Source: a virus
Taxonomy: Duplodnaviria; Heunggongvirae; Uroviricota; Caudoviricetes
Length of the DNA stretch: 21,095 nucleotides
Reading direction: 5' to 3' (one strand)
Virus record (IMG/VR): IMGVR_UViG_2534681832_000043
The position numbers were made by a program. Numbering within the stretch: position 1 is the first letter of the stretch; the number at the start of each line of letters is the position of its first letter. Below, piece after piece: positions 18,001 through 21,000 of this stretch.

Positions 18001-21000
18001 AATTTTTTGCAACTGCGTCCGACCAGTACGCACACGATGGCGGGGGATACCATGAAACTGTTCTCTACACGAGACAGAGTGGTGGTGATGTGTTGATTAT
18101 CGGCGTATATGCGCACAGGACGCGCTATGACGATGTTTTATGCGGGTACACCAATCACATGTATCTGGTGTGATAAATCGCGTTACATGACCTCTCTGTT
18201 GTGCTGGTGGTTATCACGACGTTCTGAATCTGGCTTTTGTCTGATATTTTGCGACAAGTACGCGCGCGTAGCATCGAAATTATCGGATGGCGTATGCTGC
18301 TGGCAATATGAAGACCGATAGTATTAACCGAAAAGCGATTAAGGAGTGCCAACTTTTCAGTAGAGAAACTAGCCAGCACAGGGAAATGTAGAAATTACCC
18401 AATTAATAGGTAAAAGTTATTGACACACCCTGTAGTGGATAACGATATGAATAAAAACCACATATAGTGGTTTTTCGTTAGTGATGATAGTATCTATGTT
18501 AGTTTCCTAAGTAACTGTGCATTGACATGTGGATAACTTCGGATAGAGTTACAATCAACTGAGCCCGGCCCCCTGGCTTTATCTTGTCTTAGATGAGAAA
18601 TTGTTATGGCCGGGCCTTCTTGTATCTGGAGGTAGGAAACCTTTTGTATGGCTGTTCCGGTTAAGGTTCATAAAGAATATGATGAACTTGTCGATTTATT
18701 GCTGTCTCGGGGTATGGATGTGCCAGATCGCGAACATGCTATCAAGAAAATCTCACAAGTAGGCTACTACCGATTATCAGGCTTTTGGTACCCCTGCCGA
18801 ATCCCCCATATAACAACAGACAATATTAGAACCAGACTCGATCAGGTTCGTCCAGGTACTAATTTTCGCGCAGTATATGACCTCTATTTATTCGATAAAA
18901 ATCTGCGTTTGCAGATGATGAATGCGTTAGAACGCATTGAGGTTTATGTTCGGTCAGTTATTGCTCATGAGCTTGGTAAGATATCTCCTTTAGCATATCT
19001 TGATGACTCGCTAATAAATCCAAAACACTTTAGACCACGTTCCCATGGTCGCCCAAGCGCCAGAGAAGAATGGATAAATAAACATAATGCCGAGATTGCT
19101 AAAAGTCGCGAAGACTTTATCAAATGGCATGAAAACAAGTACGAAGGTCTTCCTTTCTGGGTGGTTATTGAAGTGTGGGACTTCGGCTTAATGTCAAAGT
19201 ATTATGCGATGCTAAAAGACAGCTATCGCAACAGGATACTATCTAGGCTAGGGATAGCGGCAGGCAATGGAGCTATCTTCCAAAACTGGCTTAGCGCAAT
19301 GAATGTGCTAAGGAATCGGTGCGCTCACCATTCACGCATCTGGAACAAGGTCAACGAACCAAGATTAATGCCTTTGCCAAATGAGCCGTACTTTGAACAA
19401 TTAAATATGAATGATGATGCGTACGAAAGAATGTACGGAATGATCGCTGTGTTATGGTTTTTAGTGAAAAAAATTGGACCGGGATCTGACTGGATAAAAA
19501 AAGTTGCCAACCTTGTAGATAACAAGCCTAACTTACCAGGATGTAACCTGACAGCCATGGGATTACCTGATAATAACGGTTTCCCAAGGCATTTATTTGA
19601 TATTGAATAAATTATAGCGATGGCGCTGAATGTAGCGCCACTGATAACTTTTCAGCATTGCTTCCCTGACGCTTCCACGCGCTATAAATATCTTTATCCC
19701 ATGCCTTACCAGCTTTTGTTTGATAGCCTGCTTCATTGATCCGTTCAGCTATCACGCGCCCATTATCAAATCCCTGTCGGATGGTATCGGCAATGATCTT
19801 TATAACTGCCGTTTCGTTATATGGCTTTGGTGGGATGTTCGGCTTTCCGGCAATAAGCGACGCAGCGGCTTTTTCCATGCGCTCCACCAGCCCAAGCATT
19901 CGTGAATCAATAGACTTTTCCGGCTGTCCCAGCTTCATGCGAATCGCATCAACAAGCCAGGAGGTTTTATCCCCTCCAGAAGCGAGAACAGACCGATTAA
20001 ACTCATCCTGCAATTCAGATGGGATGCGGAACGCGACCAGATTAGATTTGCTCATTGCAAAGACCATATCAGTGAGTAATATCCATACAGTATACCACTG
20101 TATAACACTGTTATACGCTCAAATATTAGCCAGAAAATAACGGACCAATCACAAAGCTATCGCTGTGTTGTTGGTTCAGAGCTGGGCTGTGTTGGTTCAA
20201 AATGAGTTGATGTTGGTTCAATATTTTAGAAAAAACACAATAAAAACAACGATCTTTACAAATTGAACCAACTGAACCAACTGAACCAACACCTTTTTGC
20301 TTATCTATATAATCTGAGAGACAGAAATGATAAGGGACAGGAAAGCTGAAGAGCTGGAGTCAAAAGGGCTATACCGGAGAGCTGCCGCACGATGGGCAGA
20401 AGTCATGATGCTGGCAGATGGCGATAAAGAACGTGAACATGCAGCAAACAGACGCTCTGAATGTATCCGTAAGGCGGCACGCCCACCAGCAACTACAGAC
20501 AGATTCGGAGATTTAAGACAGGCAGTTAAGCGAACTCATTCGGCTCTTGGTATGGATGAGGAAGCGAGAGGGTACTTCAGGCGTTATCGCGATAAAGATT
20601 GCCAGAGACAGTAATGCTCTCTCTGTTTTGGCAAATTACCCCTCACTTTGAAGGGATCGGAGCTATAAAAATGGTGTTATCCGGCTTCCTGCATTGCAGG
20701 TTTTCGAAAAAATCAATGGGTTAGGTCATCGTGCAAATTTGCACTCTGCCAGCCAACGCAATTTCTCGTTGGCGAAAATATCAGGTATTTACTGAACGAA
20801 CGGTCTACCAGTCTATTCAGTTACCAGTTGCACATGGCTGTTTCATGTGAGAACGGAGGTTTTTTCGGACATCACTATTGGGTACAGCAATTTCACGAGC
20901 AATACGCGCGCGCAGGACAACAAGCCTGAACATGATTACACACCTCGATCGTGAGGGATGTAGACAATGGCTTCTGACCAAAGCACCCAAAAAAACCGTG

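Follow-up and report, generated by a model that had tools for sequence, protein, structure and literature searches.

How is the candidate toxin encoded at positions 18648..19610 (+ strand) of the virus record IMGVR_UViG_2534681832_000043 kept from harming the cell that carries it? The record, a stretch of 21,095 nucleotides (nt) that we call the window throughout, is an integrated phage-like island of Escherichia coli. A variable cargo slot of this island holds the module studied here, namely the abi gene, which specifies a 320-amino-acid (aa) HEPN protein of the Abi_2 / AbiD-AbiF family, and the DNA ahead of it. An earlier note, made from the sequence alone, read that upstream DNA as an elaborate control region containing DnaA-box-like motifs, a palindrome, and a long-range inverted repeat. 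Two kinds of answer can be considered. First, proteins bound to these motifs could set the expression of abi at the level of DNA. Alternatively, the repeat could belong to an RNA transcribed ahead of the gene. From the evidence below and by analogy with characterized relatives, abi and its upstream RNA probably constitute a two-part type III toxin-antitoxin phage-defense module of the AbiF/AbiFr kind, carried as cargo of the island, in which the RNA would most likely be the antitoxin itself, rather than an operator, and would keep the toxin off.

The abi gene itself is an ordinary member of its family, and its annotation as an “Abi family protein” already exists in RefSeq. Pfam PF07751 (Abi_2), the profile against which the earlier note had suggested checking the protein, matches it with an E value of 3.6e-52 and 177.8 bits (curated cutoff, 25.6 bits), covering profile positions 3 to 184 of 184. 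The PADLOC AbiD profile gives 2.7e-57 and 192.6 bits, and the PHROG match is to an “abortive infection resistance protein.” A single relative of solved structure emerges, both by sequence and by fold: PDB entry 8VZ6, “PbAbiF dimer bound to ncRNA,” is matched over the full length at 28 to 35% identity (E value of 7.5e-34), and a Foldseek search of PDB with an AlphaFold2 model (pLDDT of 93.3) returned 8VZ6_A as the sole significant match (E value of 1.8e-16; TM scores of 0.76/0.81). The motif RNRCAHH, which the earlier note had taken for the HEPN motif of Abi_2 proteins, occupies residues 222 to 228 (R222-x4-H227; 19311..19331, + strand) and aligns with RNSCCHH of PbAbiF. R222, N223, A226, H227, and H228 are invariant in an alignment of 31 sequences whose homologs are 48 to 86% identical. 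In a passage of PMC12373285 that quotes Zilberzwige-Tal 2025, the PbAbiF R210A+H215A variant is given as inactive. On profile evidence, the open reading frame (ORF) is clearly an Abi_2/AbiD-F HEPN protein, as the earlier note had proposed, and its modeled fold makes it a close structural relative of PbAbiF with the HEPN R-x4-H motif intact. Profiles and fold together mark it as a candidate RNase toxin.

To see what is conserved ahead of the gene, we aligned the window with five loci whose Abi proteins are 60 to 88% identical, from Edwardsiella, Rahnella, Photorhabdus, and two Xenorhabdus species. The upstream DNA has diverged among them save for a block matching 18556-18628. Inside this block, the sequence of an inner hairpin varies while its pairing is kept, and C-to-T changes in an outer 3′ arm produce G-U pairs. 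Directly ahead of the block lies a putative sigma-70-type promoter of an RNA-abi transcript (TTGACA, 16 nt, TAGAGT; 18522..18549, + strand), recovered by promoter scan and by alignment and scoring as the best promoter-like site of the region (10/12). Its −35 element, TTGACA, is invariant, and its −10 element, TAnAnT, is found at unchanged spacing across five genera; Xenorhabdus has TTGACA-17-TATAAT at the same place. Transcription is predicted to start near 18556. The order of elements is promoter, structured RNA, U-rich tail, ribosome-binding site, and HEPN gene.

The conserved block corresponds to a structured noncoding RNA of ~75 nt (18556..18632, + strand; covariance model match, 18553-18632), an AbiFr-like candidate antitoxin. 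The promoter and the allele-swap boundary described below place its 5′ end, by inference, at 18556, and its 3′ end falls ~15 nt ahead of the abi start codon. As a whole, the RNA is a single long imperfect hairpin. Its basal helix, G+C rich and 8 bp long, joins the 5′ arm GCCCGGCC (18563..18570, + strand; repeat scan, folding, and pair counts) to the 3′ arm GGCCGGGC (18608..18615, + strand; alignment, RNAalifold, and pair counts) across 37 nt, and the 3′ arm of relatives bears G-U wobbles, as in GGTCGGGC and GGCTGGGC. The interior (18571..18607, + strand) was delineated from the minimum-free-energy fold, RNAalifold, pair counts, and column conservation. It comprises an internal loop with a conserved CCC (18571-18573; family consensus, CCYCUG), helix 2 (18574-18577 with 18603-18606), a variable apical hairpin (18582-18588 with 18592-18598), and a conserved UAYG on the 3′ side (UAUG in the window, 18604-18607). 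Next comes a U-rich, terminator-like tail, CUUCUUGUAUCUGG (family consensus, CCUUCUUGUUUCUGG; 18616..18629, + strand), which was recognized by column conservation and within which GGGCCTTCT is conserved at 90% or more in 60 sequences. A simple terminator scan did not call this tail because the loop is too long; it is possible that the tail acts as a leaky attenuator or as a protein contact. The ribosome-binding region, read from the sequence, follows at 18630..18638 (+ strand). It consists of GGAGG (18630-18634) and AGGA (18635-18638), and 9 nt separate AGGA from the abi ATG. We looked for a conserved hairpin sequestering the ribosome-binding site and found none; a second hairpin over this site and the start codon is predicted for E. 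coli, but it was dropped since it is not conserved. A leader peptide in the short frame that begins with the ATG at 18593, within the RNA, was also ruled out, since the apical hairpin varies and the frame is missing from other genera.

How widely this RNA accompanies abi was determined with a covariance model, R1, built from the window and its five relatives (six sequences) and searched against 80 loci that had been retrieved by the protein alone. R1 has a match on the + strand, ending ~15 to 30 nt before abi, in 64 of these loci, which come from Pseudomonas, Vibrio, Shewanella, Desulfobacterota, Nitrospirota, and others. A second model, R2, added cyanobacterial, Oceanospirillum, and Mannheimia loci, and the remaining Pasteurellaceae loci have the same design as judged by eye. 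Two of the 80 loci have no upstream DNA, leaving 78; with R1 and R2 combined, the RNA is at the same position in ~75 of them. The RNA of the window scores 96.5 bits with R1 and 68.6 bits with R2 and is the sole match in the 21 kb. Rfam, searched at permissive thresholds, contains no relevant family for the upstream region; the only matches, CRISPR-DR9 (− strand; E value of 3.7) and mcrA (E value of 2.8), were set aside as chance. The RNA is thus uncatalogued in Rfam, and an earlier description of it in the 2025 AbiF literature is possible.

A recurrent hairpin might be a generic element unrelated to abi, such as a terminator for transcription arriving from upstream, a repetitive extragenic palindrome (REP)-like or recombination site, or a chance 8-mer repeat. 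Taken by itself, the window gives this explanation some room. An 8-bp inverted repeat with a spacing of up to 100 nt is expected by chance about once per 600 nt by our estimate, and the fold shuffle z-score of the window RNA is a modest −2.48. The comparative data argue otherwise. Covariation was assessed on 65 distinct sequences and 18 pairs with five measures and 500 shuffles, none of which reached any of the five measures. Cells are paired in 95.9% of cases, compared with 24 to 46% when partners are slid by 1 to 3 columns, and 16 of the 18 pairs show compensatory changes on both sides. Given such changes, the same place and strand in ~75 loci of several phyla, the conserved promoter directly upstream, and an exchange jointly with abi that is documented below, we consider a generic element scarcely credible. 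Pairing is also asymmetric, at 96.1% on the + strand versus 82.9% on the − strand, because 130 cells are G-U. Covariation and strand asymmetry together point to a structured RNA on the + strand, not to a DNA operator. Comparative evidence thus identifies the GCCCGGCC/GGCCGGGC inverted repeat as the basal helix of a conserved + strand RNA. The earlier note had placed this repeat at 18561..18617; the repeat stands, and its coordinates needed a slight correction. By chance expectation alone, the 8-bp long-range repeat is the least remarkable feature of the region; by comparison among loci, it is the one that matters.

The other motifs were all present as the earlier note had listed them, which leads to the second alternative: control at the level of DNA, with DnaA or another protein acting at the GTGGATAAC boxes and regulators acting at the palindrome and the long inverted repeat. 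The first GTGGATAAC copy (18435..18443, + strand) agrees with a DnaA box of the − strand at 8/9 positions. The second (18529..18537, + strand) sits inside the promoter spacer, 94 bp downstream of the first, and overlaps a perfect DnaA-box 9-mer, TTATCCACA, on the − strand (18528-18536). Such an arrangement favors DNA-level control, and GTGGATAAC occurs twice in the whole window against 0.11 copies expected. Exact 9-mer repeats within 600 nt are nevertheless expected ~0.7 times (estimate, 601*600/2 * 4^-9), with two found, so the GTGGATAAC repeat alone is not remarkable. Likewise, the DnaA consensus TTATNCACA is found twice in the window against 0.82 expected, a count equaled by 17 of 100 shuffles, and a single consensus match per 21 kb is at chance level. 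Neither box is kept in Edwardsiella, Rahnella, Raoultella, or an Aeromonad locus, whereas the promoter hexamers are retained; at the position of the first copy, L002, L003, L009, and L024 have unrelated bases. A DnaA-box function is therefore without comparative support, and we rejected a DnaA-regulated promoter since the boxes are neither conserved nor enriched.

Another argument for DNA-level control is the palindrome. It is perfect, AAAAACCAC-ATATA-GTGGTTTTT (18453..18475, no strand assigned), with fully complementary 9-bp arms at 18453-18461 and 18467-18475 around a 5-nt loop, and a hairpin of this kind is expected by chance only ~0.01 to 0.03 times per 600 nt (estimate). Its pairing, however, is not conserved: in relatives, the sequence core ACATATAGTG alone is kept, and RNAalifold found no conserved pairing of the palindrome. 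Possibly, it is a weak terminator or insulator or a protein site. A further point in favor is that the ~115-nt segment 18402-18520 is partly conserved in five genera and moves with the Abi cargo. It is part of the Abi cassette rather than of the island backbone; Abi-less flanks end at 18277 or 18338. Its left edge, and that of conservation in the cassette, is the motif ATTAATAGGTAAAA (18402..18415, + strand; consensus, ATTRATAGGTAAAA), which precedes abi on the + strand in the window and in L002, L003, L004, L009, L024, L074, and L080; beyond it, the sequences of these eight loci are unrelated. The motif is located at L002:2257, L003:2260, L004:2346, L009:2256, L024:2245, L074:2352, and L080:2363, in loci that span Enterobacterales, an Aeromonad, and Pasteurellaceae. 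In Photorhabdus and Pasteurellaceae, the motif directly adjoins the −35 element; in the E. coli group, it is found ~105 nt further upstream. RNAalifold applied to 18396-18562 found no conserved structure (−1.86 kcal/mol, with a positive covariation term). Since the long repeat covaries with G-U pairs as an RNA does, unlike a DNA operator, we regard control at the DNA level as quite improbable. The earlier note was right in spirit that the toxin is restrained from upstream; its idea that DNA motifs exert this restraint was not supported.

If the RNA is the cognate partner of the protein, the two should be inherited together. Nucleotide homology with the window, as detected by blastn, starts at 18522 in Edwardsiella, 18544 in Rahnella, and 18556 in Photorhabdus and in all three ends at the abi stop codon. 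In E. coli, the slot is a variable cargo site, and the allele of the window is present in 55 of 5,426 complete genomes (~1%); MDR_56 and AR_0085 are examples of strains with this locus. Elsewhere, the same flanks hold an Abi of 51% identity together with an RNA of its own (L091), small ORFs (L092), an ImmA/IrrE metallopeptidase pair (L093), or helix-turn-helix (HTH) regulators. In the E. coli strain with the 51%-identical Abi, the upstream DNA is 97% identical up to ~18553 and then switches exactly at the RNA 5′ end to an RNA variant that R2 scores at 44 bits. RNA and abi are thus exchanged as one unit in E. coli, as expected of a cognate antitoxin-toxin pair. The borders of the cargo slot lie at ~18277/18338 and 19633/19645, and a Raoultella locus (L009) has the same island backbone with a 50%-identical Abi.

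The closest model for such a pair is PbAbiF, from Prevotellaceae, with its RNA, AbiFr. We recovered the PbAbiF locus via its protein; upstream of the gene, it has in order a Bacteroidota-type promoter, GAACCCGCCAAGCCUCUCAACGAUGCUCAAAUGUGCGGGUCGUUUUAUUUUU with a hairpin and U-tract, and the ATG. The hairpin is the Rfam family abiF (RF03085; 58.5 bits), which also matches phage phiC2 upstream of AbiFCd (37.6 bits). The PbAbiF ORF is called there as 349 aa (L084:801-1850), compared with 300 aa in the solved chain, and the extension covers the abiF RNA at 894-930, which shows how such RNAs get hidden. L083, a phage contig from the human gut whose Abi is 32% identical, had been considered as the PbAbiF locus; it is not, and it has no RF03085 match. 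The module of the window shares with PbAbiF-AbiFr the full-length protein homology and the RNxCxHH motif, as well as the order of promoter, single-hairpin RNA, U-rich tail, and ATG within ~20 to 35 nt. The RNAs have in common a G+C-rich basal helix with CCCG/CGGG, a CCUCU just inside it, and an AUG-containing 3′ bulge. They differ in length, the RNA described here being about twice as long, with an extra helix and a variable apical hairpin, and in the basal helix, which is 8 bp here versus 6 bp in PbAbiFr. The hosts differ as well, being Proteobacteria, Desulfobacterota, and Cyanobacteria rather than Bacteroidota. In each PbAbiF-type locus, the best R2 match is the abiF hairpin, at a subsignificant 14 to 15 bits (E values of 0.17 to 0.27).

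AbiF noncoding RNAs neutralize their toxins through direct binding (PMC12373285; PMC12737573; PMC13064643), and RCd22 of Clostridioides difficile acts in cis via termination and in trans via binding (PMC12373285). Like the module here, AbiFCd-RCd22 is a prophage-borne Abi_2 toxin with an upstream noncoding RNA that has a terminator-like 3′ end; its RNA and toxin gene are co-transcribed from one sigma-70-type promoter (PMC12373285), as predicted for the module of the window. Its protein is ~29% identical to ours, its RNA has two RF03085 motifs (one was detected in phiC2) instead of one different hairpin, and its gene lies within a lysis module, whereas abi here occupies a cargo slot after P22-type ejection-protein genes. 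The lactococcal founders of Pfam Abi_2, namely AbiD, AbiD1, and AbiF, fall in the same Pfam and PADLOC families as our protein but are distant in sequence, plasmid borne, and from Firmicutes. For them, the native upstream sequence was reported to be needed owing to toxicity (PMC13064643).

The mechanism that we propose is modeled on the two characterized relatives, PbAbiF/AbiFr and C. difficile AbiF/RCd22 (PMC12373285; PMC12737573; PMC13064643). The RNA would bind the AbiF dimer and block the HEPN active site, which in 8VZ6 is occupied by the unpaired nucleotides C32 and U38. The hairpin and U-rich tail would end most transcripts early, leaving the RNA in excess over toxin mRNA; the RNA would act both in trans and in cis. 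If host transcription were shut off or the RNA degraded by a phage, AbiF would be set free, cut RNA nonspecifically, and cause growth arrest, so that the infection would be aborted.

Several observations weigh against this proposal. RF03085 matches neither the window nor any of ~22 loci of the clade, even at E values of up to 10. The loops are arranged the other way around: the RNA here has 3 nt in its 5′ internal loop and a single-nucleotide bulge on the 3′ side, and abiF has 1 nt on the 5′ side and a 3′ bulge of 6 to 7 nt; given this reversed asymmetry, the inhibitory contacts of 8VZ6 are not simply transferable. The U-rich tail is not continuous (CUUCUUGUAUCU), and termination may therefore be weak. 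For the whole clade, the locus studied here included, it is from sequence that we deduce that the RNA is transcribed, where it starts and ends, and that transcripts terminate at the tail. Finally, a purely cis-acting leader would yield identical covariation. We have therefore filed the RNA, which is longer, has extra helices, and has the reversed asymmetry, as an AbiFr-like variant and not as a member of RF03085, and the module as working like AbiF/AbiFr with a protein that belongs to the family.

The last of these points leads to the most serious alternative, in which the hairpin would be solely a cis-acting leader, an attenuator or riboswitch-like element that sets the level of abi mRNA, with no antitoxin role in trans. 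Covariation alone does not separate action in cis from action in trans. The hairpin lies in the 5′ untranslated region between promoter and ribosome-binding site, with a U-rich tract after it, as such a leader would, and RCd22 likewise reduces abiF expression through premature termination (PMC12373285). Column conservation, however, picks out the unpaired nucleotides CAAYnGnGCCC, CCYCUG, UAYG, and GGGCCUUCUU, and their conservation far exceeds what a terminator needs. Moreover, the structure of PbAbiF, a homolog of the protein, was solved with its own upstream RNA bound. Intact copies of the RNA also persist with no abi behind them, some of them inside phage late operons, where a leader acting only on abi would have no reason to be. 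Together, these observations make a role confined to cis rather unlikely and favor an RNA antitoxin.

The abi-less copies were found by scanning viral contigs with a degenerate RNA pattern alone, followed by scoring with R2. In this small and pattern-biased sample, there are 21 true copies (48 to 76 bits). Ten have abi 20 to 32 nt downstream on the same strand, one has no downstream room, and the other 10 (eight distinct; 48 to 72 bits) are orphans. Six-frame translations of the orphan viral loci, searched with the profile at E values of up to 10, gave no Abi_2. The eight orphan sequences are 92.7% paired, with double changes in 10 of 18 pairs, and are 71 to 83% identical to abi-linked RNAs of metagenome-assembled genomes, mostly Desulfobacterota. 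Seven of the eight share the strand of the flanking phage genes, and most are in packaging or structural operons. Namely, the orphan at L101:5798-5868 lies upstream of TerS-TerL-portal, and that at L103:158-224 (identical in L131, L153, and L265) lies upstream of TerL and portal. L108:1451-1521(−) is between TerL and portal, and L112:5954-6023 is between the major head and tail protein genes. L143:1031-1100(−) is ahead of a tail-fiber gene, L141:12704-12773(−) is ahead of an Ant gene, and L127:3017-3086(−) is downstream of a 1594-aa ORF; the eighth is at L102:4134-4204 (identical in L104). A blastn search of GenBank phages with the RNA gave no match, so the viral orphans are thus far confined to uncultivated contigs.

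The same scan of metagenome contigs, in which many chance matches of the degenerate pattern in G+C-rich DNA were removed by the covariance model, gave at least 19 loci with a true copy: at least 10 linked to abi, at least 8 orphan, and at least 1 with no downstream room. Among the matches listed, Pseudomonas-like orphans (L158, L216, L244, L249, L258:1032-1102, and L259) retain the promoter and the RNA intact, at 72 to 76 bits, and the abi gene behind them is gone or decayed. L216 holds two copies (1473-1543 and 2116-2186), and the orphan of L258 lies within a defense island with DUF4411 plus M78/HTH, DUF3077, and a reverse transcriptase. High-scoring structured copies without abi support action in trans and, as far as comparative data can tell, a function of the RNA on its own.

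Copies of an antitoxin in phages have a precedent. In ToxIN-type systems, the RNA antitoxin gene directly precedes that of a toxic RNase, as is proposed here, and a terminator sets the ratio of the two; ToxI consists of 36-nt repeats in tandem, which ToxN processes. Fineran in 2009 and Blower in 2012 are said to have reported on this type III system and on the escape of phage PhiTE through a pseudo-ToxI. Antitoxin-like RNA as a means of phage escape parallels the orphan copies in phage contigs. The module here differs from ToxIN in having a single RNA copy, with no tandem or direct repeat and one covariance match in the window, and in the fold of the toxin, which is HEPN and not ToxN/AbiQ. By this analogy, the phage-borne orphans may be decoy antitoxins against AbiF. 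Expressed from packaging or structural operons (TerS/TerL, portal, head, and tail fiber), a decoy RNA would disarm the AbiF of the host as pseudo-ToxI disarms ToxIN. A wider reading, which we put forward tentatively and with some doubt, would join these observations as follows: the RNA would represent a separate class of AbiF antitoxin in Proteobacteria, Desulfobacterota, Cyanobacteria, and Nitrospirota; its copies in phages would be decoys; its toxin-less copies in bacterial defense islands would serve anti-addiction or immunity; and the variable apical hairpin, exchanged with the protein, would determine which RNA fits which toxin.

The surroundings of the module are those of a phage-derived element. 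In positions 1-17314, an integrase gene (1-1260) comes first, then Ant-like genes, regulators, and a P4-type primase (DUF5906; 7073-9427). P22-type gp14, gp7, gp20, and gp16 ejection genes precede the Abi module. No capsid, portal, or tail genes were found in the window; the island is a degraded prophage or, alternatively, a satellite-like element. In IMG/VR, this region is also classed as viral, in L137, which has a 100%-identical Abi. An insertion sequence (IS) of the IS3 family at 13393-14606 (− strand; orfA, 14280-14606; orfB, 13393-14283) splits the P22 gp20-type ejection-protein gene into 12474-13586 and 14685-15209; in strain MDR_56 (L001), an IS1203 copy lies in the next injection-protein gene instead. 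Downstream of abi and convergent with it, with one base between the stop codons, is a backbone ORF of 151 aa (19612-20067, − strand) that is also present in Abi-less versions of the slot. It has no Pfam match and one weak PHROG match (phrog_30270; 2.9e-4). Between this ORF and perC (20327-20614), TGTTGGTTCA recurs at 20169-20292, three times in direct orientation, spaced 21 nt apart, and three times inverted. The arrangement resembles an array of iterons or operators, and Raoultella L009 has kept it.

AbiF and its RNA antitoxin have been proposed as the ancestor of Cas13 (PMC12737573; PMC12165695). The RNA type described with AbiF so far is the short RF03085 type only, and mention of another class in the 2025 AbiF literature is possible. 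A second, larger RNA architecture across a wide clade would show how much an RNA partner may vary around a constant protein fold. In practice, the covariance model can be used to annotate these loci, in which the RNA now goes unannotated and ORF calls sometimes run over it. If the copies in phage late operons are indeed decoys, they would constitute a natural counterdefense against a HEPN toxin by RNA mimicry.

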